From positions 124,001 through 177,934 of the forward strand of contig NOWV01000164.1 of the NCBI GenBank assembly GCA_003344405.1: 53,934 nucleotides of DNA, in the 5' to 3' direction. This stretch comes from Trichoplax sp. H2. Taxonomy: Eukaryota. Positions 15,804-42,802 of the stretch are shown piece after piece. The notes below the pieces were generated by a model. It searched no databases and was not told the origin of the DNA. It saw only the letters and a list, made by a program, of their open reading frames with translations. Each line of letters begins with the position of its first letter. Positions within the stretch are counted from its first letter, which is position 1. The position numbers and the translations under genes are program-made.

Positions 15804-18800
15804 ATGAAGGTAGAACCTGTTAATAGCGATGACAACCCTAAGAAAGTGGCTAATTCACTGGGTTGGACTATACCCAGTGTTATGAAGCTGTTAAAGGTAG
15901 CAAATAAGCGATCATTACTACCATAACTATCAATTCGCCATGTTATAAAGTGTTTTAGGGTGGAGTTTGTTAATATTATAGTATTGTCCAATTTTATCTA
16001 TCATGATATCGGTATGTCGAATAGAAAAGGAATTTTAAATTAAAATTATATCCACGTTATTTATTGAATCCGAATTTACGGGATCTAGTTCTTATTATTA
16101 TCACGTAAGAATTAGCGATATTATCCGCTAAAATATCAAAACTATCATTCTTTTCGTCCAACCAACTGTTGCTTGGAGAAGTATCGTAACCATCAAAAGG
16201 CATTTGAACTGCGGGAGCTATACATTATCATTAGTTACATGGCAACCGGTTGCAAATTAAGTTAAAATCAGTTATAGTAGCACATTTTAAGCAGATCAAT
16301 TTTTCTACTAGAATGCAAAGTTAAAGATGCCTTAAAATCCAAGGAAGCGCTTCGTACGTCACTTCATCATAAACTACGCTGAAATGTTTCCAGATTATGT
16401 TCACTATTTTAGCGCAGAAGCCTAGGGTAGAAATTAAAAATTTGTGTAATGAGTCAATATTCGCTACTTTTATGATAGTAATACACGTGTGAAATAAAAT
16501 AAGAATTTAGTTTTACTCGAGCTCCTACTGGATCTATTAGAATAGAATAGACATCAAAGTAAGTTTGCTTGATGATGTCACTCTTATTTATTGATTTGTT
16601 TGCTTTAGCTAAACATTCTTTGGTTAATCCTATAACTAAGATGCCTTATAGATGTGTTTATCATGGCTTGGATCGATGACACTTTTAATTAAGATAGAAA
16701 TGAGATAAATACTATGTATGATACTTGACACTGAATTCCTCCATCGATTTTATGGCACAGTCTGCTATAGATGATTATTTTTAATTTGAATAAACACTTA
16801 ATATACAATCTGCCATCTATTAGCGCTAAATTGACAGAGATAAGTGAAGATTTATTCTCAAAATTGTAAAGGAAAAAGTAGTCAAAGTAATCGTTAATAA
16901 TTAACGCAATTTCAGGTTATAACTACAACAAAAAAATGTATCACGACAGTATTATCTGAAGTGACTTAAAACGCTACTAGATAGGCATTTCAGTTAGGCA
17001 AGATTATCTTTGTGTTTAAATCATTTTAACTGATAAAAGCTAAAAAAATACTTATACAAGAGTTTGATGCACTTATTTCTATTCAAACCCTGATTGATCT
17101 AACCCCTGTTATGCTTTCAATTGAAATAATTACGATCGAAAATAATAATAAAAGCATGGGTCTTTATATAAGTTTTGAACAATCCATTTTACAATTCGTC
17201 CTTATTTACCTCTTATGATTTCTTCATAACGAGCAAAGGGCCGCTATGAAGAGAGAGTTTTTGTGAAATAACTTTTCAACGTAATAATGGAGTGAATTTC
17301 ATCAAAAATGTCTTGATAATTGTCCATAGGAAGGAAATCTATATTTTAAAACCATTCAAGAGAAGACTGGCCATACCATCTTTAGAATTAATTTGGGAGT
17401 AGAAGCTTTCGCCTTGTGCGATAGCCAAAGTGCAACTGCAGTTTTCGATTATAGTAAGGTAAAATGAAATACTATATATATCAATACTACAACTTGTCAT
17501 TGGCGATTTAGATAAGAATGATTTGATAGCCTAGGTGTCTATATATGCAGGGTACTCTTGGAAGATTATTATTTCCATCTATTTTAGCAAGATGATGATA
17601 GCAATAACATTGACTCTATTAAGATTTCATTTCGTCGATTTTACTAATTTCTTTTCATAACAGGTGACTAAAGATGATGGCTTTGGTCGATTAAAATTCA
17701 ACAAAAATCTAACCGGTCAAATAAGACCATCTATATTTTGTAATGGAGAAGTACATGAACGCTATCGAAAGTTTCTAATGGATGTTTTTCGTGCTACATC
17801 GGTTGATTACTTAATTAAAGTGACCAATGAAGCAGTTGAAAAACATTTCAGCTTATGGGAAAAGAGTTATACGGGTAAGTTTCTGTTGCAGAGACTGATT
17901 TTCAGCGTACTCTTACTTGCGGACAAGTACGCGGATACTTGCAGACTTGTGACTTTAAATAGTACCTTGACTTGAGGACATCACATTTCGTTAAATCCTA
18001 TTTGAAGTATAAATACTACTAGAATCATAAGGAATGTTCTCTTCCTCTTTCGAAATTGGTCTTGTAATATTTATCGTATTTTTTAATCTTGTCTAGGTGC
18101 GGGTATTGCCAAAGAATGGGAAATGGATATTTTAAGGTTATGCAGCGATATTGTACATCGGGCAATTCTTGGAGGAGAGATAAGCTCCGAAGCTTCACAT
18201 AATTGGCTTATGGGCATTCTGAAGAAGAAAAGGTACTTTTAATAAAGTAAAAATGCTTAACCGTATTAAAATAAGCTTATTGAGAAAGTTGAGTTGTGCT
18301 TTAATTCTTTAGCAGTACAAAATTAAACGTTCATGATATAACTCGTAACTATAACGTAAATCGATCGAAATTAATGATTATACAATAGAGAAAAATGGGA
18401 TATGAAAGAGTTGGAGGGGTAGAATTTCAAATTCAGATGATTTTAATAATCTTTCAGCCTTGTACTATCCATGAAATTAAGCCTAATAAGGACAAAAATT
18501 GAATCTCTTCGATTACGCATAGTAGCGAAATCGGACGTGAAAGGGTTGAAGGGAAAGAATTACAAATTAAGATGATTTTAACGATCTTTCAGTCTTGTAT
18601 CAATCATGAAATTAAGCCTAATAAGGACATAAATTTAAATCTCTTCAGTTAAGCATAGTCGTTCAATTTGCCTTAGAATTGTTGTGTATACTTGTATAAT
18701 TATAGTCGTGTTTAGTTATTCATTTTATCTTTACTATGTCTATCCCAATCACTTGAATGTAATCATAATTAAGTAATTTTTAGGATTCCTATACGTCTTA

Positions 18801-21800
18801 TACTTGAGGTTAAATTAGATATGATAATAGTGAGAGATCGAACATATGATACTAATATTTTACGATAGTTTTTCCAAGCGTTCTAGAATAGACTTTGATA
18901 CTCGGAATATTTTACTACAGATTATAGTAAATTTCTATTTAATTAAGTCTATCCTAATCACTTAAGAGTCATTCTATTTAGAATTTTTTCTTGTCACTAG
19001 ATCTTATTCATTAGATTAAATCTAATGCGATTATGGTGGTACAGTAGCAATTCAATAGATACGTTATGTAGTATATCCAATTCTCTCGAAATTATTCTAA
19101 ACTCGGTGTAGATCAAATAAATTGCAGTAGCTATCACAGAATCTTATTGATTAACGATTTATTCTACTTTTTATTACCTCTCTAGATCAGCTTTAGGGGT
19201 CAAAACTAAATTTTTCTCCAAGGCTATCGTTGGATATGCAATTCTCACCAATGGAATTAAAGAATCTCCCCACTATCAGAGCATGATCAAACTAGCTGAC
19301 AAACGATCAGTTTCTGAAGAGGAAGCATTAAACAATATTCTCTTTTCCATTCTGTAAGTCATCATAGGAAAGTAGAATCAATATAGTTAGATTTAAAATA
19401 ATCATAGTACATATTTTTTCTGGAAATGAGTTTCTGCATAATAGAAGTACAATACTGCGGTCAGTAATTCACGATCCTATTACAGCAGGCATAATCTATC
19501 CAATTCCTCACGATAAATAAATTCTTGATGTAGACGTCGTTACATAATTTATTTCTGTCTTAGGAAAGCTAAATTAGGGCTCTTTGATGTATTTTTTATA
19601 CCTCTACTAATTCTATAACTTTCAATTTGCATCTTGGTAATGAATTAGATTCAATTACTATGGAGGATGCAGTGCTGCCTTTCGGACATGTGCTGCAAGG
19701 ATATCAATATTAGACGAAAATATCAAAAGCGAATTAATCGAAGATATTAAAAGTGCTATAAATAAATATGGAGGCCTAACTGGTCAAGCTTTGTGTCAAA
19801 TGAGAAAGCTCCATTCCTTTGTTTTGGAAGTGAGTAAAAGATAAATTAAAATGATTACTTGATCTTGTCCTCTTAATTATCAACGAAAATATTTTGCTAA
19901 GACAAAGTACGCATAGACGGATACAATTTCATTAAAATACCATATTCAGCTCTCAGTTCACATCAAACAATAATATATTTATCTGTGATATTAAGTTAAG
20001 ATGAAAGTACAATTATCCCTCTACATGATCTTTTAATTGTTTGAAATGAGAATTGGAGTTAGAATTGAGTAAAACGGGAAAGAAAAATACGTCATGAATT
20101 AATATTGAAAAATTTAACTATTTAGTTTTAGATTATCCATTGTTGAGTTTGTGGCAAACAAAAATAAATCATAACTAAATATTATTCCAGAATTGGCATC
20201 CTTAACCCATATAGTTCATATACTATTGTAGTAAACTGGATACAGCAAATAGTAGCAAGATAATGATGGTTACAAAATTAAACTATTCTCTTCTTAAACT
20301 AACAGTATGATATTCTATCAAATTACAGAATCTTAGAATGTCTTCACCCGTGAATTTAATTTTTGGACGAGCAGTGTAAGTATTTCCCTTTTGAAGGGGA
20401 TACCTAATTGACTATTTCATTTTTTAGCAAGTTTTAAATTGCTTTTTAATATTCGATTGCCTAAAGTAGTCAAAAAATTAAATCAGCTTCAACAGTATAG
20501 AGGCACATACAGTCCAAACGATAACATACAGGAAAATATTAGTGGACATGTCTTGATCCACACCAAATACATAGTTATAATTATTATACTTATGATGAAA
20601 ATATCGTTATTTAGCAAGTTACTGTACCGCACATTCTCTACTTTTAGTCTAATCTATATTCAAATTTAATTCTTTTGCCTATCTTTTAGTGAAGATTTAA
20701 TGGTTAAATCTAATACCGGAACTTACAAGATTCCAAAAGGCAAATTAATGGTAGCTAATCTCTTTTGGGCACACCGAGATACTAGAGTATTCGATGATCC
20801 ACTTACCTTTCAAGCACTGCGATTTTTTAATAATCCGGTAAGATTTATATCTCACTTAATTATATAGACTACCTTTTTAGCTGTAGTTAAGGATTATAGG
20901 TACAGTATTCTTCCATATCAATCATGAAATTTGAAGATTTTGTCAATTTACTTTTAAACAGGATCTTAAAAATTATCTGTACTGGGAAGCTGGGCCTTTC
21001 TCTAAGGATCAGTGTGAAAAGACCCATCAATGTCCTGGTCGGGTAAGTAAATTTCTCATTGGACACTATTAAATAAATTTTATATTTTCTTCCTCTAAAT
21101 GAAATTACTTGTGATGTCCGAAAGTATTCTACTTTGCTTCAGATTTATGCTAGACTAATTTAACTCTTATTAGATTAATCATTTCGAGATTATCGTAACT
21201 TATTAAATTTCTATCTCTTCTTATTTGTGTAATGATATACCCTCATTTTAACTACAATAAACGAATCATCTTCGATCACTAGCTTAGCTACTCGTCTAGA
21301 TTCACTTACCGTTTATTGTAAATATCGATGAATAAACATGAAATTAGTTTAATGTACGACAGTCAGCTCTACGACCTAGCCATTATCGAGTACGAATAAC
21401 ATCAAAAATATTTAACCAATTATTACGATATTTTAATGATGTACGCTTCTATTAATTATAATTATCAGTATCATACAATTTTGAGCTGAAGATTTTTTCT
21501 TTCAATGACGGATAGAAATGACATAACTGTGATATATCTCGAGCTTTTCCTAATAATTTAAATACAAACATTTTACGCCTACGCGTATAATGAAACATAA
21601 TTAAATGAAGCAAATTATTTTAACCTTCCGTTTTATATCTTACACATATTCAAAATAATGTATCTTGATTCCCTAGAACATTGCTATCCCTTCCATCATG
21701 CTATTTTCCGCTTATCTGCTCCTTCAAGGAGACTATCAACTAGGTAGTGAGCCTCAATGGACAGGAAAAAAGTAAGCATAGTATCCGTAAAACGTTGTAA

Positions 21801-22366
21801 ATATTTTGTATTTTATCTTTTAAACTAAAATTATAAATTCTATGCTAATACCACTAAAATAATTGATAGTATAATATCCATTTAAATATTAGAATCTCTG
21901 AGCTAATTCCGTTATTCACTTGCAAAACATGAATGAACATGATATAAGACTTTTACAAGATCTAATATTCGTTTTTGTGTATTTAATGATAGAATTCGAC
22001 GCTTAGGGACTCCTGATGAGATCATCACTCTAAAAAAATTTAAATACAAATCAGACGTAAGTGAACCATTTATTTTAACAACGCAATAAATCCATCCATT
22101 GCACCTCCGTTATTTACTCCATTTTAGCCCTATATAGCTTTACTTTAACTTCTTCGTAACTGTACCATAGGCCTGTCTTACTTTCGTTATATATTCCAAA
22201 ATTAACCTCTACTGACAATTGTTACATTGCAAATATAATTCCATCTATATTCTCATCATAGGTTACAGTTTCGCTACCGGAAGCTGTTCTAAATAGCAAA
22301 TTAAAGTATGATGAAATGACAGCCGAAAATAATAATAGTCAATGTCCTGTGGACAGCGAAGCTTAA
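15804..22366 (+). CDS. CYP74-clan cytochrome P450, paralog B (~485 aa)
   Basis: Exons 15804-15896, 17330-17458, 17664-17874, 18097-18232, 19186-19353, 19649-19829, 20329-20375, 20690-20837, 20962-21042, 21677-21771, 21993-22056, 22262-22366 join in frame. Motifs: NNILFSILFNYYGG, ENLRMSSP, HRDTRVFDDPLTFQALRF, WEAGPFSKDQCEKTHQCPGR (Cys codon 21031-21033). Confidence 0.93.
18403..18659. repeat. ~135-bp tandem duplication in intron 4 of paralog B
   Basis: TGAAAGrGTTGrAGGG...CATGAAATTAAGCCTAATAAGGACA...GCATAGT occurs at ~18403 and ~18538. Confidence 0.88.
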
Positions 22367-25300
22367 TAAAAACAAAATGAAGGAAATCGAAACTTAGAAT
22401 AAGACTGCAATTCCTTAATTTTAGTATGATTTAATTCTCGAAGTATTTTTAACGATAATATTTGGTATTTTCTTGTAAATTTTATCTGCTACGATTTACT
22501 TCCACTACCACGCTTTACTTTGATATGTCTACTAAATACAGCATCAATTTTTTTATCTTTCTTTATTTTGACGTAATCTAACGTTTTGTCTTCAATATTA
22601 AAATATTTCTGCTTTAATTGTAAAATATAACATCGATGTAGTTTACTTCTCATCCTTACCTAATTGCAATTAATATTAACAGTACAGCATACGGTGTATT
22701 TAGTCATGAAAGATAATATTTCAGCTGATCCATCCTTTTAATCTTACTTCTATTACGTAGAAACATTATTGTAAGAAATTTATTAGACGATGTAATTGGC
22801 CTACAGATCATAAATACATAAGCATCAAATTGTTTACTTTAAAGAATTTCATGCAAGTCACTTAAATACTTAAACTTAAATTTCTTGCTCCTATCTACAT
22901 AATTATGATATAGTAAATCTTGATGATATTTGTAATCTTACAATTTCATGTTAACTTGGACGACTTAACTCACGATGTCCCCGCAATCATAGATGATAAT
23001 TTCAGTATGAGAATCCAGCTGTGAACTAATCATTATAGATCATCAATCAACTTTTTTACTAATAAGCGTATTTTAATCCCAAGCGTTTAAATACTACTTG
23101 CGTATTTAGGTGTGAATACAAACTTACTTGCATGATAAACTGATATCTTGCATCATTAGCTATAGTTGTAGCTATTCCTGATCTAATTGTTGTCTATCTA
23201 GTAAGTTCGTTCTATTATATCTGTAACATATCGTAGTAAATAGTAACCCATAGCATTCTTATAGTTTATTACGGCAGACTATTACGAATATCAGTACTTA
23301 AGAAATAAAATCTGCTAGGTTGTATTAAATGTTCGTAATTTTAAAATGATGCTGTAGTAATTCTACTCATGAATTTTTAATCGTATGAAACTGTTTTAAT
23401 GAGATATTCTACGTTAATGTAGTAATTCATAAATAAGCTAATCAATCTTGACTTCACCTAAGAATTATTACTGCTTGTAATGCTTGCTTTTTACTGATTA
23501 AAATGTTTTGAATGATACAGTAATTGATACTATTGCATCAAATCGTTGGCTAATAAATGCTGTTGGAGTTTTTGAAGTTGATTTCTATATACTGTACAGT
23601 ATTATAAAATCGTAAGTCTGGAATACGAAACCCGATAGATACCATTTCCACATTAATTTATAGACGCATTTTTAAGGGATGATTTTTAGCTAACATCGTG
23701 TATATATAATGGCTGAAATTGAAATGCTACACATATTATATACTATATTAGTGATTTACGGGTATATACAATATTAAATTTACATAGCCTTCTTATAAGG
23801 TAGCCTGAAATTAATCATGAAATGTATGCAAGTGCTAACTTTGTAACCACGATTATCGCAGAATAACATGCTGTCACAAAGTAAATTTTTTAGGCTTATT
23901 ATTAAGCTAGAGTTATGATGGAGCTAAGATTAATTATAATGATAGTGATATAACAACTTGATATGATTCGATCATATTAATTACAAGAAGGAACTTTAGA
24001 TATAAGCAATTTTGCAGCTTAAATATACATACCATCAAATTCTAACGCTAACTCACGAGTATAAAGTTAGGATAGGATTAGCTATATCGATAGCAATACA
24101 ACTACTCACGATAACTTAACTATATTAATTATAAATAATAGCTATATCATAGATAGAAATTCCGAACCTTTACATAGCTTACATACTTTTGCGTTCTAAT
24201 CTTAAGCTTATCCAATAGTATCTTCGCGAAAAAATTATTTTCCAACTGTAAATCATTTACATTATCATTGCCGAGAAGAATTATATCTTCGTATTGTAGA
24301 AATCTTTGGTTAATCAAGTACTATGGTCATCATATCAACAGGTTGTTGCTACTATAAAATCATAATATTATGATTTACGCTATTGATTAATCAGACTGTA
24401 TATAATATTTGTATAAAATTTCGTTTACACTAATTTTCTATAAAGATAACAGTTTACAATTCATCATATTGGATCTATTCACCTTACAAACATCGTTGCA
24501 GTAATGATTAATATTATTATACTCATACTTTAAGTATCTGTATACAGTAATTTGAATTAGCCATGATATGGTTAATTATTCCGACTATTTTTGAAAGATA
24601 TTACCGATTCGGTCAAACACCTACGAATAATTCTATCAGATTAGCTTTGCAAGTTAATATCTGTGCAACTCCATTTTAACTTATGAGGTCTCCTGACAAT
24701 ATATGAATATATTGAATATATTGTATAAAAAAACATTATTACATCTATTAGGCGGTATCCTTTAGGATAACGTGGTAGCGAGATCATGTAAAATTACTAT
24801 ACTGTCCATGTTCATATTGCAAGAAAGAATTCAATTGCGGAAACTAGACTGTATATTAGGATAAGAACAAACTTTTCCACCGGGGATAGAAACAATATAT
24901 GCTAAATTGTATTCTCATAGCTATATAAGGATATCATCATTAACATAATAATGTGACTTTTCTACCATAATTGTTGTTGAATGGCTAAGCATAGTAAATC
25001 AGGAATGGGTCAAGACAAGAAGTAGTCTCCAAGGCATTAACTTGAATAATACCTTAACTACATGCTAGAGGAGTGCTGCTTTATACTCTAGACAATAACT
25101 TTAATTATTCACTGACCATGACCCAAGACTCTTCTAATCGTCTCTAATTTAGTTTGTCTGTAATTTCTTTTCACTAGACGTCAATATTATCTCCCACCCT
25201 AGTCATATGTGGCTAATAGAACTGATTGCTGTCTTAAATGTAGGATTAAAGGGTTAAATTTCGATCGACATCAATACATTAAGTTATTCCTATCACTTTC

Positions 25301-26396
25301 TTACCTATAATCCAATCAATAATCGGAAAAATTACTCAGATAGATAACTTATCCCATTTTTTTATCGCCATTAAGATTAAGGTATGTTTTTATTCATCCT
25401 GATAGCCCATAATAAAGATATGACTCATAGCATTAACCGATTTGTACGTAGAACTAAGACTATATTATTACAAATCTTCTTTAAAATGCTTTCTACTTTT
25501 CAGGATAGCTTGTCTAATTTCTTCATCGTAATTACAAGATATATTATTTATACGTCAAGTACTGCAATGATGCATGACTTAGGGGAATAATAAGTATACT
25601 GTACTAATAGAAATTTTCATCTAAGTTAAGCAAGTGTGTTACCCGCCCAATAAAGACATAGTTTTCTTTTTATTGTAATTTTTTACTTCGTTACTTATTG
25701 CTAAGTTTTTGTAATTTTATTATTCCCTTAATCTAAGCTATAAAAAAGTATGGATGTTGTTAGAATTACATGTTAAGTAGCAATTATACTATATGATATA
25801 AGCAATTTAAAAGCTATTTTCGCTTACCCTACCAAGCTTATAATTCTGGTTGTATCATAGGTAATCTTTTCGTAATTTGAAACCTAAACAGTTGTAGAAG
25901 CAATGTTTTATATATACATGTATATTAAGCTTGGAAATTTAATTATATCAAAGCTTTACGTTGACCTATTAAATTCATTAATATGATAGTTCTATTATAT
26001 TCCTCACCTGATTGCCTTCTTAAGAACAGTGATGATATAATACCCAGCTCTGATTACGCTGCAGCAACTTTTCGATGATTTTATAGATTTTGTTCACGAT
26101 TGCAGACCTATTCATTACCAGTATTAACTTATAACGATAAATAACTCTATGCTTGACAAGACAACAGATTAACTATTCAACGTATAAAATTTTTAGCGCC
26201 ATACTTGTTCCAGTCATCTTGTCGTGTAACAACAATTCGATAGTTAGCAAATATAGCTTATTTTCGAAATGATTTAATAAATAAAAATAATAGCAATAGT
26301 TTATTAACCTTAGCATTTCTTTCTTTTGATCCTGTATGTAGAAAATTCTTCAAGTTTTTGCATTTATGCAATAATAAAATACTATAATGATCAAAG

Positions 26397-29300
26397 ATGG
26401 ATAATGATAAAGAAATGGAAAGTACTAAACCTGAAGAAAAACGAGATACCATTCCTGGATTTTTTACCTCTCTTAACAATTGGTACTGTATGTCAAAGTT
26501 ACAACATGTAAGTCTCAATTACTAAAATTAATTATACTGTTGTGTATATGGCAAGAGTCTGTATAGGGTTGAACGATGTTCAGTAATTCACTTTAATATC
26601 TTCATCGAATCATCAAGCTGCAATTAAATGCCTCATCTTCCTTACTGTACTTTTAATCCCATCCATCGATGACAGCGTGCTTTAAAATCTTGCTGTTTTT
26701 AAAAGCTTTGTCTCTCTTATTGTACTTTAATCCCGTCCATTGATGACAGCGTGCTTTAAAATCTACTTTCAGTTTTATAACACCATTCTGATAATTAATA
26801 TCCAGTAGCCTTGTGTTGATTACAGGCTTTCTTGGCTGATATAGCGTTACATAATAAAATTTGTTAACCATATTCTTGTAACTACATTCTAAACTTATTC
26901 TGCTACCTTTCAATCAATTATTCATTCGTCTCCAACATTAAATAGAAAGGACATTTATTCTTTCATGAAGAACAACAGCGGCATAAACGAAGTATTTTTC
27001 GCGTTAATCTTGGTTATGATGCAATAGCTATACTAACGAATGAAGAATCACAATTACTCTTTGATAGTAGTAAGGTATGGAAAATGATACTGCAATGAGA
27101 TGACTAATTTATTGTAAAAATTTTAAGATCATCCAAAAATATTGCGCCAAAGTATATTAGGTAATTCAACTTTACAACAGTTAATTTTGGAACGTCCCAA
27201 TACTTTACGAATAATTATAACCGCTATTTATACTGAAATTAAACACAAATAAGATGGAAATTGTAATACATCTAGACATACTTAAGTATTTTTTTACTAT
27301 TGAAAACTGTTAATACAGTTGTGATATTCTCTAACCAGGTGGCAAAAGAAGATTGTTACGGAATAGCGCTACAAAATGTTCAGTCACTAACGAATTATCC
27401 TATAGCATCTTTATGGAGTGATCAAGCTAAAAAGGATAGAAAATCCTTAATAAATGATGTCGTCCAGCTAATTCCTGTTAACTATTTTATGAAAGTGGTA
27501 AGTGATACCATTAAAGAACATTTTCAACGTTGGGAAGACAAGTACGAAGGTAAAAAGTCTGATATATCTTTTACAAAATTATTTCAAGACTAAAACAGAT
27601 ATTTACTTTTTCACGATGTCTCAGTTTATCTAGGCAATGGTCCACCCGGTAACTGGGAACGAGATATTCAAGAATTTTGTAGTAATGCAATCAGTTCTTT
27701 ATTGTTAGGTACACGAGTTGAATTTCAGTCTGCTTCTGATTGCTTGGAAGCCATGCTGATGATATCAAGGTAATTATAATAGTAGGAGGAAAGCAAGTTA
27801 TAGTAAAATATCACACAATTAACGCTATGTAACAAGATAACCTATCGCAGTATTTAATTTGAGCTGTGCAATATCTTGTTGATAAATAAGGATAGCACTA
27901 TTGTAGCATATAAATCACGCAGTTAATTAAGTCTAAATTGGCTATAGGTAGCATAATGTAAAATGGAAAGCTTTAAGCTTCAGTTAAGGTATCTATTAAT
28001 CCATCAGATGATCGATTTTACTATCTATATTTAGGCTGTTCGTTAAAACTGGATCGTTTAATCGTGGTATTAAAGCTACCAAAGTATTATTACAACAAAT
28101 TGAACAGTCGCCTAATTTCAAGAAACTCGCTAAAATTGGAGAATGCTATTCGTTAACTCAAGATTTTGTTAAAATTAACATTCTTTATATCATGATGCAA
28201 GTACTCTAAAATAAAATCTACTCCAGATCTAGATGACTTATAGATAGGGTTATAGTCTTGCAGCTAAAGAGTACAAGACGTAAACTTTCACCTAAAGTAT
28301 GCAATTATTTCAATCCAATTTATATATAGTGCAAAACTATTCCGAACAAGCAATACATTGATGAGAAGTATAGCTGCTAGAATCATTACATTATCTCCGC
28401 AGGACAAGGAACATCTAATTCAAAGTACCTCCCAGGTCTTGACTAATCACTCAGGATTATCTGAAAGTGCAATGTTAGATATGACTGACTTAAAATCATT
28501 TGTGATGGAGGTAAGTTTGCATATTAAATCTAATTATAGGGTTATTTTATGCCATTTATTAATATATTATACACTTTTGCGACTCATTGATATCGATCAT
28601 TGTTGCCTATCTCGTATTTCAGGTTATTCGTACATCACCTTCTGTTAGCCTGATTTATGGAAGGGCAGTGTGAGTTAGCGGTGATAATTTAACTTATATT
28701 AAATTTTACAATCTTATCGTCTAAATTATGCGTATAAAGCTGTATTTCTAGGATATTATATGTAGTAGCTTACTTTTATCCCTGGTTTACTACTCCAGGC
28801 CATAAACAACTGACATCAGCGAAATGTACATTTTACTTGTACAGTAGAATAACGGATTTAATCATAGTAAATTAAAGTATTTGAAACATGGATAGGCCTT
28901 TAATACGAGTATGGTAGTTACGCCTAGTCTTATAGCTGAGATAGGGTTATTTATCACGTCATCACTAAAACTTGGATATATCTTTCGTATAATTAACTTT
29001 TACTTAACATTAATTGTATTTTAGAATAACATAATATGATAATAATATAAATTAAACTATTTAAAAATTTACTGGGCTTCAAAATCAAATTAAATGCTAT
29101 AGTTGATATAAAATTATTAATTATAGACATTAATTGCCAATAATGGTTTATATCATATAAATACTCCTAATAGAAATGATATGAATATCAGTGTCGATGG
29201 CTCTACTTATAATATTCGTAAAGGGCAGAGATTGCTTGCCAATCTATATTGGGCAAACAGAGATCCAAAATGGTTTGATAATCCAGATGAATTTCAACCA

Positions 29301-30493
29301 TTTCGATTTAGTAACTATCCGGTAGGTTTATACACTCAAAATTATTTTATGGAGATTTTTTGCAACGATAATGCAAATATTACAAATTTATTAAAAGTAA
29401 CTTCTAATTTGTTTTCGAAGAAATAATTCAAATGAGTAAAAATAATTGCACAAAATGGCTATTATCTACTTAACAATATTACCGAATTTATAGTCTTTAA
29501 AAAGATGCTTATTATGGGAATATGGATGCTTTGGCGATGAATTTGAAGGTTTAGAAGAGGTAATATTGTTGTATTTTATTTTTAAAGTCAAGTTTTAGAC
29601 TTTAAAGGTAGCAAATTAACTCAATCTTATAATTAATATTCCATGTTAAATTTATCTACTGCAGCCTATTTTTCATTGCCTTGAGCTCTTTAGCTTATAT
29701 TTATTGCTGCAGAGCAGATTTGTTCTATACAAAACGCCAACTTGGGATGCAACAAAGTAGGTCATTCCTATTGTAGTAAGCTATAAAAGTATTTTTAAGT
29801 GATTTTCAATAAATAAACAAAACGTACGCAATAAAAGCTAAAACAGCATTTTACTTTAAAATAATGATAACATAGTTGAATAATAGCGTTAAAGATTTTT
29901 CCTTTTTACATCAGTATTTAGTCATGTATTAATTAAAGTTTATACGATCACATGTAATAATTTACTGAAATACTCCTCTAATCTTTCCATTTGATAATTT
30001 TATAGAATTCGACGTCATGGTTGCCCGGATGAAGAAATATACATTAAAACATTTCAATTTATAGCCGTTGTAAATATCTAAATTCAAAATTTTATGATGC
30101 ATGCGTGTACTTGTATTAATAGTGTTTAAAATATCTTATGAAATTTCTTTATGGATTTAGAATAAGATCATCCCCGTTCGTGACGTAGCGGATGCTCGGT
30201 CGTTGCTTTTTTCTGCTGGAAATCAATATTACGTTATTAAAACAACAACTACAATCACTCGCTTCCGAGATGGCAAACCAGTCGTGGAAGTTAATGAAGA
30301 ATACAAATCTGGACAAGGTAAAGACGGGATGTCAGAATTAAAATCTGTTTTAAAAGCCAATGATATTAATGAATCAGTGATACATACCGTCAATCATAGC
30401 ACTACTTCCAATCTTGGTAGTGCCCAAAAAAATGTAATTATTCGGAAAAGATCACGTAAACAACAGCAAAAGTCGACTGAAAAAAACGATTAG
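26397..30493 (+). CDS. Divergent CYP74-clan P450-fold protein, paralog C (~559 aa); lacks heme-ligand Cys and I-helix Asn; long C-terminal extension
   Basis: Exons 26397-26507, 26946-27074, 27339-27549, 27634-27769, 28035-28196 (GC donor), 28330-28510, 28623-28669, 29174-29321, 29494-29559, 29665-29756, 30006-30069, 30161-30493 join in frame with no stops. It retains TIPG, SIFRVNLG, EVIRTSP and NRDPKWFDNPDEFQPFRF. The I-helix reads INILYIMIAKLFRT and the heme loop reads WEYGCFGDEFEGLEE. Confidence 0.88.
26646..26764. repeat. ~45-bp direct repeat (period ~75 bp) in intron 1 of paralog C
   Basis: TGTACTTT(T)AATCCCrTCCATyGATGACAGCGTGCTTTAAAATCT occurs at 26646 and 26721. Confidence 0.88.
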
Positions 30494-33400
30494 TTTACAT
30501 TGGTATCCTATTTTTTAATTTGATGTATAATCACAAGTGCAACAGTATATTTCGATGTATAATTAAGCTAGCTTATTCTCTATAACTTTATTAAAAGAAT
30601 ATTGAATTCATGTCATCATCATTATATTGAGTTCATAAGCTGTCATTCGCGCATTTTATTTATTGCATAGGGTAACTTGCAGGTATCATTAGATTAATTT
30701 TATTTTTAATAAAATGACAGTTGCTTAATGTATTTTATTACAAGTTAAAACTTTTTCCGGATAAAGAGTTTCCAATAAATTGGTATACTTATTAAGTTAT
30801 TGGTTCGGATAACAGCATAAGGTTAATAATTTGCTTCCAATAGCTAAAATGATCGTAGAATTTATACTTAATCAATTTCTGTGTTAAAGATTTATAGTTT
30901 TAAGAAATATAAATTGTCGCTTTCTAATAAATTGAATATTTAACATAACATGACTATTTTCGATATTTTTATACTTAATTTGCTGTCCATGTAGTGTATA
31001 TATAAGTGCAAAAACATACATATCCAACAACGTACATTTGTTACACGTAACCAATTACTTATGTATTATATACTTCTAAGGTTAAATCGGGAAATTTTGA
31101 AATTATCTTTAATTTTTAGATCATCATATGATGCACTATATTGAACATCTTCTTACATTCCTTACATACCAAACCTTTCAGACAGTACTTACTTCAAAAT
31201 GTGTATGTTATTTTGCCCTTACATTTTATATGCTATGCATGGGAATTCGAATACGTACTTTTACGAGTCGCATGCTAAGAAATTTAGGTTGATCAGATGG
31301 TGATGTAATACTTTTAGTTTACTATTTCTACAATAGTCATCTTGTAGGAATATGTCCCATCAAAGGTATAGTTTCTTGCATAAACCTTGTTTACTAGCTA
31401 TCTAAATCTCTAATAGTAATGATTAATAGATACCCAAACTTTTATGGGAAATATAAACAGTATATTGTTGGTTTCAGCGATTATAACCTGTTTAAGCTGC
31501 CTATCCAAACCGTCCTAAGAATTTATTTTACAATAAAATATCACACTAATTTATCGAAATTCTCCTTTGAAGAACATTACCAAGCTCATGAACGGCTGCT
31601 AAAGGTTTGATAAACAAAGTCAGACAAATTGTATCACTTATAGCAAACCTAATCTGTACCTGATTTCCCATAAAGCAGGTTATGATGATGACATCGATTT
31701 CGTTTTTCTTCGGTGCAAATTAGAAGAAAATAAATTCAAACGATGTTATTTGTACATAAGTTTTCGATTTCTTGGGACTCTTTCAATACAGATACTTTAA
31801 CTGTAAACAAGTACAAAATTTATTTTTCAGTTCTATTTTGACATTTGCTTTGTATAGTACAGCCTAGAGAAATTGTGCTCATAAGCCAACTTTGTCAATT
31901 GAGTGTACGCGTATGTAAAAAAGTAACCGGTTAATTCTGGTGCTTTCCTAAGAGTACAGTATTATCTTATATGATAACAACGGATGACCTGTCTTCATAA
32001 TAATTCCTTTCGTATGGTTGATTTAGTAAACAAGAATCAATAGGATATTTCGTATCCCACCGAGTATTTCTTACAGCACATTGTCTTCATTGATGTATTA
32101 AAGAATAAAGTAGAAACAGTTGTGATTGGTACAAAATAGCAATCATGATTTGATGTAGCTTTTTTTGAAGAAGGTAAGAAAAATTACAATGTAAGAGTAG
32201 CATAAAAATTACTAATGAAAGAACTTTCGCGATGATAAACTTATTAAATCATCAAATCATTGTAAAAGCTCTTTCATTAGCAATTTTCATGTTATCCTGT
32301 CTCTTGGCCAACTTTCTGCACTTAAAACTACCATCCCTAAGAACAAAACTCATTCAATGTAGCAATTAAATTTTAATTTTCTTTTATCTGTATAAGATCT
32401 CTCTATAAAGTTTATTAGGTATATTAATATTGTCACCAGCTGTAATATCAGGGCGTTAATTATGAATTAGTTTATATCTTAAAAGAACTATAATCTCTAA
32501 ATTACCGTTCTTCATAAAAAATCTTCCATCTTAAGGATTATCTAGAAAGAAGTGAAAAAGGCGAGCAGTAACAGACTCTATTTCTATTTTTCATGTCTTA
32601 ATACAATGATCTTCATAGATAAGTACATTAAACGTATTATTCACATATCGTTAAAATTTTTAATAATAATAATGGTGTAGTATTGAAAATAAGTAAATTT
32701 ATATATTTTAGAATAGATTGTAGTTAATTGATTCATCCCGCGTAAAGACTTCCGGAAGTATTTATCATCTTTACATCTAAGGAGCGAAATTTTCCATTTG
32801 TTCATAATTCTACATGATCATAGATTACTTATATTTATTAAATAAATTCTAACAGTATGATTTTGATACTCAGCAAATTTATATTTTGAAACGGGCTCTT
32901 TTTCACCTATCTGTAACAAAATCCTTCATACTTAGTAGCTATTACCCCTAAAGATCGAAAATGACTAACATTATTGCGTGAAGATAATGGTACAATGATA
33001 GCTATTTTAACAGAGAAAGAACTTGTTTAAATACGAAGGTTAAGTTTAAGGTTAAAAGTAGACAACAGCATTTGACAGTGATAGAATGGTTTCATAAAAT
33101 GATGGTTCCCAAAAGCAAAGGTGATTTCAAGCGGGCACTAGTAGCTTAACTAATTTTACATGTACACAATTGTATGCAGATATAGATATTTATATAACAA
33201 GAGAAGAGAGAGAAGGAGACAATAGAAATAAAATTATGAATGGCGCAGTTCTTAGGTCACGACTTCCAGCTGAATTGCATTATAATTATAATAACCACCT
33301 GTAGATTTTCAAGCATAGCAAGCGTATTTTTTATACCAGTTTATATTAGGACCCCCTAAATATGACGTGTAAATTGTATTCGAGGGTGTTATTACGCAAA

Positions 33401-34230
33401 CTATTACGTTTATTTAATACGAAGATCACCGTATTTTACTATTCGTCGAATATCGAAATAGTTTACTTTGTGTAAATCCACATATACTTCTCCATATTTC
33501 GAGAAAATCAACAAAATTTATAAACTAGGTACTATTAATAGCTTTAAATATAAGTATTAATATTCTATATATTTAATCTAACATTAATTGCTTAATATCT
33601 TAAAATTGAATTAACTAAAATAGTTAATCTTCAATTATACGAGTATTTTGCTTTCTGTGTTACGTTTTTAACTGTTTGATGATAAAATAGCAAATGATGT
33701 TTATGGATACGGGCGTACGTAAATAGTTAAATCAGATTAAAATACGTTATTACATTAAATTACGTATTCATGTTGTTTTAGAATAGTCTTTTCAACTTAA
33801 TGTTACTTCCATTTTATTCTGACGTTAATGAGAAATATTTGAAGCTTAGTAATATAAGCAAACAAATAATTATATAATCATCAATGATTTTTCAGTAATA
33901 TTTTTCTTTTCTTTTTTGTTTACTTCTTACCTTTTAATAACAATACGACAACAGTATAGCGTAAATACATCGCTAAGAACACAGAAAAAGTAATTGAAGT
34001 AAAATTTTTAAGTATAATATTAAATAAAGGTTACCCACTTTTACAGTAAAATTAACCGGAAATTCAATATTGCAGTAAAACAGAATCTTTTGACTTTAGT
34101 CACTAATCCAGTCAAATATCAATTAAAGATATTTTATATTGTCGTCTTACTAGTTTTGACTATGATATTAAATAAAGGAATTTGTTATCAGCTGATAATT
34201 GGATAGCTAAAAGTGAAAAAAATCAATGAT

Positions 34231-37200
34231 ATGGAAGTTCTTTCGCGAAAGTTGCACCGGAGAAGGAGGTCTAGCCGAGAAGATACTATTCAATCGATTC
34301 CTGGATCACATGGACATAAATTTATCAGTTCCTTTAAATTACAACAGGTAAACGGAACTAAATCGGCCTAAATATTTCATATGTGCATATATACTATTTT
34401 ATGGGAAAACTACTAACAGGAAGTATTACAATCCGTCATAAACGGTAGTATTACGAAAATAGGTCAATTATGAAGTATTTTTTAAATTTATGTGCCTATT
34501 TATAATGTTAAATTGTTTTATTACGATATACTTGTACAGTAACACTGTTGCATTGTAATAATCCAAGGAGATTTTAGTATTATTACGGTTAATTATAATT
34601 TTTTGTTAGTGTAACGATTGACTGATTGACTTTTAAGTGAATGACGCAAAGTGTTAAGATAGGCGATTATGATTGAAGTTAATTTGGAAATTATATATAA
34701 TTAATTCGGGTGTTAAATTTTCGCCACAGTTGATTGATACAATCTCCAGTGATATTATGTTTTACTAATTGCTACATTTACTGTACCTGTTTTATTTAAT
34801 AAATGGTAATAAATTAGTCACATCCAATCCCGCTTAGGCACTTTGCAATTTTAATGTTTTCTTAACGAAATTGTAGCCTTAGCAAATATAGTTTGTATAT
34901 CGGTGCATTGTATAACGATAAAGTTAATATTTATTATTTTACGTGTGTAGTATTGTATAAGTTAGAAATACGTTTCTTCATTAATCTTATCTCAGTTAAG
35001 GTGCTAGCAAGTGCTGTCTATAAATTTAGAAACATTTAGAAACCTAACTTCGCGCTTATTTTACAGCAAGGAAATTTATATTTCAAGACGTTACAACAAA
35101 AATATCAACAAAATGTTTTTCGAATCAATATTGGCGTTCGAGCTATTGCTTTAGTCGATAATCGTGTTATACGTATATTATTTCAAAATGATAAGGTTTG
35201 TATTATTTTTTATTTCAAATGTGATCAAGAGTGACAGCTAGCAGTAATTTTGCACTCCGTATTTACAATAGTAAGAATTTTAATCTAAATCATTAACTAC
35301 TATGGTATAAGAGATGCATGTTATCGATCATAGTGATCAAATAAGTCAGCTTTTACGTAGATTGCTAATCCGTATGGAAATAAAATATTTAATTCAATCC
35401 TGTAATTGTTAGGTAACGAAAGAGGACGGCGTGGGAAACTATATCACCAATTATAATCTTATGGATAGTTTGCGTCCTTCCATATTTTCAGACCAAAAAG
35501 ATCGTATGAGTAGAAATTCATTTATTTTGCAAACTTTGGCTGCCATGCAAGATAAATATATCATTCAGCAAACCTATAATAGCATTGAAGATCATTTCCA
35601 ACGATGGAACAAAACTTATCAGCGTTAGTCTATTTTCCTATGAATATGATAGCTGTTTACTTACGTGAACTCATAAGTAAAGCTCAAAATTTAAAATACA
35701 CATATACAGGAAATTTTTATTCTAGGGCTTGTCTCATTAGAAATCTAATCTAACTATGTTTGCTATCTCATATTGGATTTATTACAGCAACTGCTTCAAA
35801 ATCGATACAACCATCATGGGATGATGGAATCCAACATTTATGTTGTGATATAATTTGTCGATTATTTATCGATAAGACCGTTAATTTTGAGTCAATCTTT
35901 CAATGGTATGTGCAAGCGTTGCAGAAGATAAAGTAAGAAATAGCATATTCACATAATCTCGTACTTACTTATAAATTCGCATCTTATCAGGGTATTAATA
36001 GAGGAGGATAATTTAGAAAGCTTTTCATAATTAGTTTAATCTTATTAGCACAATACATCATGATTTTTTCCATTAATATGATAGAGTGCCTGGATTGTTA
36101 AAGCAAAGACAATGTGCCGATATTTATAATACCTATATCGAGCTTTTCAAGGAAATTGAGAATTCTACTTATTTGCCGTATTATTTAAATACTGGTCGTC
36201 AATGTTCCTTGTCCGATGAATATGCCAAAGAAAATGTTCTGTTTGGTATCATGTGAGTACTTAATTAGGAGAGATAGAACTGAGATATTCTTAATCTATC
36301 TATTTTAGAACTGCTGTTAAAAATTATTGAGATATCAGTAGGAAAAAATCGGTTGTAGTTTAGTTAAGATCATTTTGTTTCGTGTTACACTTACGTAACG
36401 TCCTATGCTCAACAGGAGCGTAATTTAGAAGTCGTAATAAATGATGATGTATATCCATCAATACAGTTTTATACCATAATCGTAAAAGAGTAAGTTTAAA
36501 TATAGTGGTCCTCATTACATATCTAAATATTGCATATTATAAATAGCTGATATCAATATAATTCATCAAGTTTTTCAGAACTTCGCTAGAGACGATATTT
36601 TTTAATTCTTAGAATCACTTTAAATTAACAAGAATAAATGTAATTCTAGTTGCTATTGTAGTCAAAGGTTTCCTATTATTACATTGAACTATCAGCTTTT
36701 TCGATAGCCGTACAATATTAGGGATCTGTACTAGTCCTAGAATCAATATAGATTAAAATAATATTGAATAAAATTATGATTGTCGAAGTAATAGCAATAT
36801 TCCTTATCATATCACTATATATTAGCTTTAACGCATTTGGTAGCTGTGAAGCAATTATGAGAACTTGCGCAGCACGAATTGGTATATTAAGCCATGAAGA
36901 TCGAAATCAATTACGTCAAGAAATACAAAGTACATTAGGTGAAGGCAATGATCTTTCTCTAGCAGCACTAACCAAAATGAAACGATTGAGATCGTTTGTT
37001 GCCGAGGTTCGAAAAATGGCAGTATTTCTTGATTAATTTTTAAAGATCTTTATTTTAACTTTATACCGTCTATTACTTTGACGCTAGGTTCTTCGTACTT
37101 CTTCTCCTATTTCATTAATATTCCGTCGAGCAAAGTAAGCCTGAAGCTTATATTAATCATAAAGTAGATCGAAATAATATCTTACTAATATCAATCCTTG

Positions 37201-38409
37201 GACTTACTGTAATCCTACAGTGTAGTGTACTGCTATAGTACGATAGATCGATAACTTACGATCTTTATCTGATCTGAAAAGGGATCAAACATATTTTATA
37301 ACCAAATTTGGTTGAATTCCAACTATGATCTATTTATAGTTGCGTGATCTTGAGTTGATTATAAATAAATATAAATTAATTTTAAAACGAAGCCCTGATT
37401 CTCTTTCATGTTAACGTTCAAATAAAATATTCTTTTTCATTTATCATACCTATTGTAGACAAGATATGTTTATTCAAGCTTATACAGGGACTTATAAGAT
37501 TTCAAAAGGACATTTACTTGTTGGCAATATCCATTTAGCTCATAGGGACCCAAATGTATTTCCAGAACCAGATACATTTAAGCCTTTCCGATTCTATGAC
37601 GATCCAGTAAGAAGTTTTAAATATGCTGTACAACCATAAATATAGATTGCTCGTAAATTGAAATTTCTATGAATTTCATTTTTTATTATTCTTAATGAAT
37701 GTAATGCACATAAATATTTGTAGGAATTGATACGGCATATGATTTGGGAAGCTGGAGTATATCCAGATGAAGCCAAAAACTTAAGTCATCAGTGTCCAGG
37801 AAAGGTATTCATTAAATATGACTTTAATTTAAAATAGAGGCTCCTGATATTAAGATCTATTTGTTACTCGTATATTAATTATTTTACTCTGAATTTACTT
37901 ATATTTGCTATTATAGAAAATGATGATGATTCTTCTTCAGCTCTTTTGCATGAAATTATTGATACATACAGAGTTTCAGTTTGATGTAACGCCGGACTGG
38001 AATGAAAAACAGTAAGTTTTAGTGATTGCTAAATGCTTAGTAATAATATTGATTATGCCTGTCAGGATAGTGTAAAATGATAAAATGTATAGGTATATAA
38101 ATTGATTATCCAGGGTATTGGTAGTCTGTATTGCCATAACAGTATTAAAAATGAAGCAAATCTAATTTTATACTATTTACCTTATAAGCTTACATAGCCT
38201 TGGCTGCCCTGATGGTTGTTTAACTCTAAATCAATTTTCATATGATCCAGCTATGGTAAGGACTATGTAATTAATGCTAAATAAAATTCATGTTTGAATA
38301 AATATCAGGAAATAGAATAATTAATCAGATATCTCACTGCTAGTTCAAGATCAAGCTATCGGATGATATTTGCAATTCGCATTCACCGTTTCTTCACTGC
38401 GAAGATTAA
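34231..38409 (+). CDS. CYP74-clan cytochrome P450, paralog D (~484 aa)
   Basis: Exons 34231-34347, 35067-35195, 35413-35623, 35788-35932, 36085-36252, 36826-37006, 37088-37134, 37459-37606, 37724-37804, 37917-38011, 38189-38255, 38344-38409 join in frame. Motifs: SIPGSHG, KYQQNVFRINIG, ENVLFGIIFNAFGS, EVLRTSSP, HRDPNVFPEPDTFKPFRF, WEAGVYPDEAKNLSHQCPGK (Cys codon 37793-37795). The last exon is less certain. Confidence 0.92.
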
Positions 38410-39598
38410 ATATGGATTATATAGACCATCATCAGAATACTAGATAATTGACGTGTTGACTACATCTTGTGTCTCTATGTACTAGCCCAAATTTTACTTA
38501 TCTGACGATGTTCATAATTAGAATTCACCATTTTCAATTACAGCGATTAAATATAGACAGTAAATATTGGCTATTGTAACGAGTAGCGCATAAAGCTTGA
38601 TAATTCCATTATAGCATAGCTTTTCATGGTTGTATTTATGATATTATTTATTAGATAGTATAAGAACCAAATTTGTTCATTACAAGAATGAATGGATTTC
38701 TGTCATGACATTGGTATATTTTAGCGTAATTCTTTTATGACAATATCATTTAAAGTTAATTTCTAAAGTATTTAGTTTATGGAAATGCTTGCTAAAACGA
38801 CGAGCCATGAATTGCGTTTGATGAACTCAGGTGAATACCTATTCACTATTCAAGTACGAGCACATAGCCGAATAACTTAAATTGTTAGTGTAACGAGCAT
38901 CGAACAAGAAATTTACTGCGGTCACAATCGATGTTAACTCTACACAGAACTACAGTATGTAGTTATGGTAAAGAAATAATTTTTAAGTCCATTGCATTGG
39001 TAAGCATCTGATGTATGCGAGTATGAGACTTCAAATTTGAAGTCATATCATGTACTTTGAAGGTAAAATTTGTTCACGTTATACGTGTGGTTACAATATT
39101 TTAGAACCAATATTTCATTGAGTATATTGCCGTAAATTTTTCGGGCTTTATTAATTTACAGTAAACTATTTCAGACACCTGTTTGGAGAAGGTCGATCTT
39201 AAACCATGTTTATAAAGATACTAAATAATAATGATTTATAATTACAATAGAGTGATTTTTAGATCATTGACAGTATGCCAATATTGAAAGTTACATGTAA
39301 CAAGAAATTAGCAATAAAGGGTACAAAGACTAGTTAAAAAGAGTGTAGGAAATTAATGCCTGTTCAGAACTTAAATAGAGCAGTCAGATTATCACCTTTG
39401 AAATAAATTACATTTGAGATTCTCTGTTTTAAGTCCTGTATTCCTAATAGAAAATTAACCAATTTTATATGCAATATGTACAACAGAAAAAGCTGATACT
39501 AAATGGCAATAACAAATTATAGCTAATTCCGAGTAACATTGTTCAGCGTAAAAGATAGTTGTAATATTGTGTTCATAGTAAGTCCTAATACTAAAGTA

Positions 39599-42500: not shown

Positions 42501-42639
42501 GTTCTCGTATCGCATGAAGAGCATCTTGTAATTTTAGTAAATTAGCTTCAACAGTTGTGCTGTCATTGGACGTTGATCCATTTTGACTTGGATTACTGTC
42601 AGTATTGGAGGTAGAAATTCCGTTGGAGTTTCCGTTCAT
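39599..42639 (-). CDS. MED27: Mediator of RNA polymerase II transcription subunit 27
   Basis: Minus-strand exons 42639-42350, 41281-41140, 40712-40582, 40468-40384, 40291-40196, 40056-40015, 39923-39846, 39760-39599 join in phase. Translation: LQDALHAIRELRWNVKDLFNDL...LLYDPQLEGKSTHQDLINSYEWNQN...STYQVFKLVTLRATSASLHYY...NWLASYKNLFNSKCKYCNKYL...LPPCCR...AYHYECQ. This matches the MED27 pattern YQVFxxVT, WLxSYxxLFxxxCxxC, LPP, HxxC. Confidence 0.9.
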
Positions 42640-42802
42640 GATTGACAAGATAGCAGTCCAAATTAGCTGTTGGCTGGCCTACAATGTTTGCCCTTGAAAT
42701 GGAGAACAGGAAGCCAACAGGCGTACAATCAATTAGCGGCGGGAACTTTCTCAAACCTCTTCGCTTGAGCAGGAGGTTAAAAGTCCTTTTAAATTCCTTA
42801 TT

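Follow-up and report, generated by a model that had tools for sequence, protein, structure and literature searches.

A transcribed CYP74-clan P450 gene of Trichoplax sp. H2 that lacks the heme-ligand cysteine and the catalytic asparagine: a candidate pseudoenzyme

The CYP74 clan of cytochromes P450 spans animals and plants and contains allene oxide synthases, hydroperoxide lyases and epoxyalcohol synthases, along with CYP440 and CYP443 of the lancelet and the sea anemone. Here we analyse 53,934 nucleotides from the placozoan Trichoplax sp. H2 (contig NOWV01000164.1, positions 124,001 to 177,934 of the forward strand), hereafter called the window, in which four P450 paralogs of this clan, A to D, lie in tandem. 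The third of them, gene C, is a transcribed, spliced, coding member by descent of this placozoan array, and it has neither the cysteine that ligates the heme iron nor the asparagine of the I-helix. With modest confidence, we favour the reading that gene C encodes a maintained, expressed protein of P450 fold which is unable to make a thiolate heme and is probably non-catalytic. From its sequence we infer that the protein would form no thiolate heme, would not turn over hydroperoxides and may have a binding or regulatory role.

An axial Cys is regarded as near-universal in P450s. Exon 9 of A, B and D terminates in [ST]HQCPG[KR], a motif that is conserved at the DNA level too (CATCA[AG]TGTCC[TA]GG). 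When C is aligned with these siblings using MAFFT, a six-residue gap falls in C exactly over [ST]HQCPG and the acidic WEYGCFGDEFEGLEE stands there instead, as the original prediction, made from the letters alone, had described. The axial Cys of the heme loop (C.G before the L-helix) is thus a feature of the P450 superfamily that C does not have. The distance from W..G to the L-helix is six residues shorter in C than in A, B and D, although the alignment cannot fix which residues were deleted. Among the other long database hits examined, those with a complete C-terminal region all have a loop Cys; the hits outside the pattern for the long Cys loop were checked by eye (the Cys standing as C.G, CPA or CIE), a survey from which P0022, P0028, P0032, P0043 and P0066 were left out as truncated or rearranged.

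The second loss is in the I-helix, where FN[AY][YF]G[GS] of A, B and D reads AKLFRT in C. All six positions are changed, which bears out the predicted replacement of FNxxG[GS]. The catalytic Asn is invariant in all 18 other clan sequences that we compared and is Lys in C, and the neighbouring invariant Phe is Tyr. This Asn is described as starting the homolytic O-O cleavage in the CYP74 clan, whose listed features include the catalytic Asn, a long heme loop and the ligating Cys (PMC8124189). Further marks of the clan are the ERR triad, the PPV domain and a nine-residue insertion in the heme loop. With the thiolate ligand and the Asn both lost, the clan reaction is very unlikely to occur in C. 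A third change had been put forward at the C-helix, where the His of the clan is indeed replaced by Lys; as a sign peculiar to C it fails, for sibling D has Arg at this position, and the change therefore says little.

The motifs associated with the fold have been kept. Both ExxR (as EVIR) and the RDP...F.P.RF motif (as NRDPKWFDNPDEFQPFRF) are retained, as had been claimed, together with W..G, and the ERR triad is present as E313, R316 and R373 (ExxR plus the Arg of the PERF-type motif). The public model of C, P0001 (TRIADDRAFT_53403 of T. adhaerens), matches the Pfam family PF00067 (p450) with an E-value of 6e-16 and 58.7 bits, against a cut-off of 22.8. To place these changes we examined alignment columns over A to D and 15 hits of 380 to 560 residues, which had been chosen by a long-Cys-loop pattern requiring C.G. 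Eleven columns are invariant in 18/18 of the other rows, and C keeps seven of these (the Glu and Arg of ExxR, the Asp of RD, the Pro, Phe and Arg of the PERF-type motif and the Gly of W..G). The four that it has lost are the Phe and Asn of the I-helix and the Cys and Gly of the heme loop, of which the latter two are invariant partly by construction, given that the outgroups were chosen by C.G. At the PPV-domain position after ExxR, C has SPSV, and a Pro conserved in the clan is Ser in C; the siblings also deviate there (SPPI, SSPV and SSPI).

Sibling B matches the solved plant CYP74A structures 3DAM (CYP74A2; E 1.7e-29) and 2RCH (CYP74A; E 1e-25), with its FNYYGG aligned to FNT[FW]GG and its W..GP...HQCPGR to WSNGP...KQCAGK. 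The alignment of the C model to 3DAM, by comparison, ends at WEYG/WSNG. We therefore take the siblings to be ordinary CYP74-clan P450s, each with the Asn for catalysis, a long heme loop and a Cys to ligate the iron.

These losses sit in a gene that is structurally whole. Its open reading frame runs from an ATG at 26397 to a TAG at 30491-30493, through 12 exons and 562 codons with no stop or frameshift, and its intron positions and phases are common to A, B, C and D. We compared this model with RNA contigs. A search found 18 runs carrying part of the stretch, three of them recorded as RNA, and the evidence used here comes from the contigs of four runs (X5, X6, X7 and X9), from four studies and under two organism labels, over 21500-39500. 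X6 is recorded as RNA; X5, X7 and X9 were guessed to be RNA and have contig totals of 36 to 52 million letters. Such contigs speak to presence and structure rather than to expression level. The exons, all on the plus strand, are as follows.

25182 to 25379, plus strand: 5' non-coding exon of C; joined from 25379 to 26340 (GT..AG) in all four runs; 25182 marks the outermost contig piece (X7, record 13) rather than a mapped start.
26340 to 26507, plus strand: exon 1, coding from the ATG at 26397; joint 26507 to 26946 in all four runs.
26946 to 27074, plus strand: exon 2; joint 27074/27339 in all four runs.
27339 to 27549, plus strand: exon 3, with the C-helix region, in which the clan His is Lys; joint 27549/27625 in all four runs, read as 27547 to 27623 with cut +2.
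27625 to 27769, plus strand: exon 4, equal in length to that of D (145 nt); its acceptor lies 9 nt ahead of the AG at 27632-27633; joint 27769/28035 in all four runs.
28035 to 28196, plus strand: exon 5, 162 nt; GC donor at 28197-28198; joint 28196 to 28330 (GC..AG) in all four runs, with 164 letters on the shorter side.
28330 to 28510, plus strand: exon 6, with the I-helix, where AKLFRT replaces FNxxG[GS]; joint 28510/28623 in all four runs.
28623 to 28669, plus strand: exon 7, with the latter half of ExxR (E|VIR) and the SPSV stretch; joint 28669 to 29174 in all four runs.
29174 to 29321, plus strand: exon 8, with the RDP...F.P.RF (PERF-type) region; Pfam p450 E-value of 3.6e-10 for this exon alone.
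29494 to 29559, plus strand: exon 9, with the shortened acidic loop and no aligned heme Cys; joint 29321/29494 in three runs, with matching loose ends in the fourth.
29665 to 29756, plus strand: exon 10, with the L-helix region (PIFHCLELF...); joint 29756 to 30006 in all four runs.
30006 to 30069, plus strand: exon 11; joint 30069 to 30161 in three of the four runs.
30161 to 30493, plus strand: exon 12, a C-specific tail of 110 residues with a basic cluster at its end, then TAG.

The junction of the 5' untranslated region and 10 of the 11 coding junctions are therefore present as joints in three to four of the four runs. The remaining one, between exons 9 and 10 (29559/29665), is not among the 15 of 31 joints that were listed; its support comes from contigs of two runs (X5 and X7) that end at 29559 and continue with CCTATTTTT, the first nine bases of exon 10. 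This junction and the one at 28196/28330 were the two for which the original prediction had proposed a check in RNA, and both agree with it. So do the exon count, the open frame, the phases shared with the siblings and the in-frame differences in length (162 against 168 nt in exon 5, 66 against 81 in exon 9 and 92 against 95 in exon 10). One start is corrected: RNA puts the acceptor of exon 4 at 27625 in all four runs, and rules out 27634. Intron 5 is peculiar in that the siblings have GT at the position of the GC donor in C; the nearest GT would break the frame, and the GC donor is thus required. Two further alternatives were considered and rejected. In a model restricted to GT-AG introns, a GT donor at 28201 and an acceptor at 29127 would each break the frame; RNA bears out the use of GC at 28197 and of an acceptor just ahead of 29174 instead. 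An end of the gene in exon 11, at the in-frame stop 30079-30081, is ruled out by the joining of 30069 to 30161 in three of the four runs. The exonic differences listed for C number three, all in exon 12, of which two are synonymous and the third is A540T.

A separate RNA complicates the 3' part of the gene. A block at 29056-30047, comprising the end of intron 7, exons 8-10 with their introns and 42 nt of exon 11, is carried unspliced by contigs in all four runs. It is flanked by at least 255 foreign letters on each side, has no splice dinucleotides at its edges, and both edges fall at ...ATTAA|A; the flanks gave no match in the window at up to three mismatches. In X7, introns 9 and 10 are covered to a depth of 104 to 165, where the contig of the C mRNA has 25; in X5, X9 and X6 their depth lies below that of the mRNA. 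The likely source of the block is another genomic copy of the 3' part of C, or a structural variant of it. The junction evidence is untouched by it, since exon 8 is tied to exon 7, and exon 11 to exon 12, both of which are unique.

This RNA matters for another explanation, that a Cys-bearing sequence was missed through an error of assembly or gene model, or comes from an alternative exon. The foreign flanks of this abundant RNA do imply a second copy or structural variant of the block, and fewer than half of the joints (15 of 31) were listed. We nonetheless regard such an artefact as highly improbable. The same heme-loop sequence is found in P0001, an independent model from T. adhaerens. Exon 9 is joined directly to the first nine bases of exon 10 in the contig ends of two runs, with no extra exon between them in the RNA forms seen there, and the 8/9 and 10/11 joints are as modelled. 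Finally, the C.G motif is absent from all three frames of intron 9, and reading through in frame from exon 9 gives VILLYFIFKVKF and then a stop with no Cys, which agrees with the earlier claim that the intron supplies none.

Is the protein also maintained by selection? A HMMER search with P0001 against 1.84 billion cluster representatives returned 72 hits at E <=0.001. Six of these are short single-exon peptides (57 to 86% identity) from a more distant placozoan lineage, and they correspond to exons 2, 3, 4, 6, 8 and 12. They derive from Logan or ENA contigs of <=2.5 kb and possibly from more than one species; four of them give 2459 as the length of their longest contig.

P0013 against exon 2: 30/43 residues identical.
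P0012 against exon 3: 29/33 aligned residues identical.
P0008 against exon 4: 35/46 identical.
P0058 against exon 6: 32/50 identical; begins just after the AKLFRT motif.
P0006 against exon 8: 38/49 identical.
P0004 against the exon 12 tail: 68/90 identical (75.6%).

Over all six fragments, 232/311 exon-coded residues are identical to C (74.6%). Set against the stop-to-stop frames of the window, most of the alignments stop no more than a few residues from an exon edge, although the one for exon 4 extends about 8 residues into intron 3. Such exon-limited conservation suggests purifying selection on a coding gene, as read from protein identities and not from a ratio of nonsynonymous to synonymous substitution rates (dN/dS). 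Exon 8, for which fragments of A and D orthologs were recovered too, is about as conserved in C as in A and D: the identity is 38/49 (77.6%) for C, 40/49 (81.6%) for A, and 41/49 (83.7%) and 38/47 for D. In a quick IQ-TREE search on 19 self-selected rows, the four genes of the window form one clade, with an SH-like approximate likelihood ratio test (SH-aLRT) value of 93, inside a starred set of six rows. The terminal branches measure 0.47 (A), 0.70 (B), 0.93 (D) and 1.25 (C) changes per site; despite the length of its branch, C has kept its 562 codons clear of stops and frameshifts. The best full-length match outside the placozoans, P0005 (and P0075 and P0076), is a protein of 452 residues whose JGI/IMG metagenome contigs measure 1.6 to 3.8 kb; with the motifs FNSYGG and HHCPG, it joins the window paralogs in the starred clade.

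Several of these observations weigh against a maintained, non-catalytic protein. The branch of C is the longest of the four, 1.3 to 2.7 times those of its siblings, though less than an order of magnitude. Conservation in at least 75% of the 18 other rows holds for 54 columns, and of these C has the fewest (38, compared with 52 for A, 46 for B and 45 for D), a comparison in which A, B and D themselves belong to the consensus against which they are counted. An unexplained abundant RNA overlaps exons 8 to 11, and two of the invariant columns that C lacks owe that status in part to the choice of outgroups. No fragment covers exon 9 or AKLFRT, so that the losses could be recent and the conservation could pre-date them; a word-index search of shorter proteins at E up to 10 recovered no exon 9 fragment from another species. 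Also on this side stand the possible alternative ligands near the loop of C, namely the cysteines of WEYGC and FHCLE, several Glu and a His.

Three of these points, namely the long branch, the few columns kept and the possibly recent losses, would suit early decay, under which C would have lost catalysis not long ago, would have its open frame, splicing and expression as remnants, and would owe the conservation across species to the time before the loss. To these may be added the non-canonical donor of intron 5 and the public annotation, where the model from H1 is broken and no H2 model of near length was found. Even so, we think early decay improbable. In a genome of 30% G+C, 562 codons and 11 coding introns have stayed without a stop, a frameshift or a dead splice site, and the GC donor is used in all four runs. 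The I-helix motif was rewritten at 6/6 positions and six residues were deleted while PERF, ExxR and W..G remained intact, and for catalytic motifs to be rewritten so heavily beside intact fold motifs, constraint must have acted site by site over a long time. The tail, peculiar to C as it is, still shows 75.6% identity between species. Taking together the fold motifs, frame, splice sites and tail that were kept, and the transcription, a maintained protein of P450 fold is the best supported reading. The original prediction had argued for selection for a non-catalytic role rather than decay. The first half of this claim, that the gene is maintained, is supported by the 10 of 11 junctions seen in RNA and by the 74.6% conservation in exons; the second half, the absence of catalysis, stays at the level of a probable interpretation.

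A non-canonical heme protein is the other possibility, in which C would bind heme through another axial ligand (a Glu in GDEFEGLEE, a Cys in WEYGC, or either the His or the Cys in PIFHCLE) and carry out a different reaction. The loop of C does have 5 acidic residues in 9, with a Cys and a His nearby, and around the heme loop C has retained W..G and the ERR-type residues. According to PMC11703216, bacterial P450 homologues without the Cys include a large Glu-type subfamily and a Ser-ligated member that binds heme. We nevertheless consider this unlikely, if somewhat less so than early decay. The loop of C is six residues shorter, and hence no residue simply replaces the Cys; the Cys of WEYGC aligns with the Pro of W[ES][AN]GP, 12 residues ahead of the ligand position; and the loss of the distal I-helix Asn, Phe and Gly as well fits a loss of heme chemistry on both faces.

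Compared with the CYP74 clan at large, C has common descent, the exon structure of its siblings in the window, ERR-type residues, a PERF-type motif and W..G. Unlike the clan, it is without the cysteinyl ligand and the I-helix Asn, its heme loop is six residues shorter and it carries an extra tail of 110 residues. Outside the clan, P450 homologues that lack the axial Cys are documented in bacteria. A RefSeq survey of >200,000 hits (PMC11703216) found Cys at the aligned axial position in >99.5%, with bacterial exceptions. It describes 880 bacterial homologues without the axial Cys, the largest subfamily having Glu there, and these non-canonical CYPs (ncCYPs), from six bacterial phyla, have Glu, Arg, Ser or Sec as the axial residue or have none there, some being without a predicted ligand. 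C resembles them in being a natural P450 homologue without an axial Cys. It differs in that at least one ncCYP binds heme and is an enzyme, whereas C has also lost the distal catalytic residues. The closest functional precedent is the PDGAF proteins (P450-derived glycosyltransferase activating factors) of actinomycetes (EryCII and DesVIII), which are described as having a P450 fold without heme or Cys and serving as a partner or chaperone of a glycosyltransferase (PMC11703216; PMC3391682). Like these, C keeps a P450 fold from which the Cys is lost. However, PDGAF proteins are bacterial, belong to an unrelated P450 lineage and are encoded beside a glycosyltransferase, while the neighbours of C are sibling P450s, and we liken the two by description only. 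Given that P450 homologues without the Cys are already known in bacteria, what would be new here is the animal host and the CYP74 clan. Our literature search, outside of which lay most subscription journals and supplements, found no paper dealing with CYP74-clan genes of Trichoplax or with the C protein; the one paper in which both Trichoplax and CYP74 occur is a study of peanut P450s.

The tail encoded by exon 12 includes a Thr-rich stretch and a basic end (IIRKRSRK...). No Pfam family reaches threshold on it (MGS, with an E-value of 0.045, is under the cut-off), a search of the Atlas returned no look-alikes, and an AlphaFold2 model has no confident fold there, with a mean predicted local distance difference test score (pLDDT) of 44.7. 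The tails encoded by exon 12 are unrelated among the paralogs, with 34 residues in B (22262-22366), 110 in C (30161-30493) and about 20 in D (from 38343), and all four genes have a donor of GTA type after exon 11, at one and the same codon. Inside exon 12 of C, three of the four runs have a minus-strand intron at 30309-30387 (CT..AC) in contigs that continue to about 31943 without a long open reading frame. They point to a non-coding transcript, antisense or convergent, across the 3' end of C.

How such a protein might work can be sketched from what was lost and kept. Gene C appears to be kept under purifying selection. It has lost the Cys thiolate ligand of the heme iron, an acidic loop standing in its place, and the I-helix Asn that starts O-O cleavage of fatty-acid hydroperoxides, and it has gained a conserved C-terminal tail of 110 residues. 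Its product most likely acts as a pseudoenzyme, whose fold may serve for binding: an oxylipin, a hydroperoxide of a fatty acid or a partner protein, for instance one of the sibling enzymes, would be natural guesses. On the wider proposal our confidence falls a little short of even: C may be the first P450 of an animal, and the first of the CYP74 clan, to have turned heme-thiolate-free and been kept, binding oxylipins or hydroperoxides or docking on its siblings, with the basic end of the tail perhaps serving to target or tether it.

In the public databases, a word-index protein search with exon 6 retrieved only P0001, which has 487 residues and a precomputed Pfam P450 domain. A search of the same kind with P0001 among proteins of 267 to 853 residues found nothing beyond P0001 itself, and no Trichoplax sp. 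H2 model of similar length. Unlike the RNA-supported product, P0001 passes from exon 5 to a point halfway through exon 6, translates intron where exon 7 should stand and has exon 12 directly after exon 9; it is thus without the I-helix half of exon 6 and without exons 7, 10 and 11. The GC-AG intron is probably the cause of this mis-splicing. Where P0001 and the window can be compared, they disagree at three residues (M131I, Q541H and Q554K).

The window as a whole has a G+C content of about 30% and is placozoan (Trichoplax), with its closest protein matches in Trichoplax sp. H2. Its four P450 genes, found by tblastn with the exon peptides of gene C as queries, are the following.

3676 to 11187, plus strand: sibling A; model from this analysis, exon 12 not located.
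15804 to 22366, plus strand: sibling B, 485 residues; keeps FNYYGG and HQCPG; model identical to P0002.
26397 to 30493, plus strand: gene C, 12 coding exons.
34231 to 38600 (3' end approximate), plus strand: sibling D; keeps FNAFGS and HQCPG; residues 1-440 equal P0003; RNA pieces from 38343.

Pairwise identity of C to its siblings is 32-33.5%, and that among the siblings is 36.5-39.6%. The model of B is identical to RDD38702.1 of Trichoplax sp. H2 and differs at two residues from the T. adhaerens protein, and its junctions 21771 to 21993 and 22056 to 22262 (exon 11/12) are present in all four RNA runs. A scan of the window with Rfam found 0 families. Intron 1 of C has a 39-nt direct repeat (26652-26690 and 26726-26764; 95% identical, 74 nt from start to start), and no tandem repeats were found in 25000-32500. 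Repetitive DNA occupies 42800-44200, where the same peptides recur in overlapping long frames, GTACA and ACTGT units form short tandem arrays and a 20-N gap lies at 43472-43491; G+C is raised there, at 0.42 in 42001-44000.

The RNA-supported structure of gene C corrects the public model TRIADDRAFT_53403. If our interpretation is true, the gene would be a natural test of the P450 fold without its cofactor in an early-branching animal, for whose biochemistry the three intact siblings would form an internal control set. The range of P450 pseudoenzymes would then include animals and the oxylipin (CYP74) branch of the superfamily.

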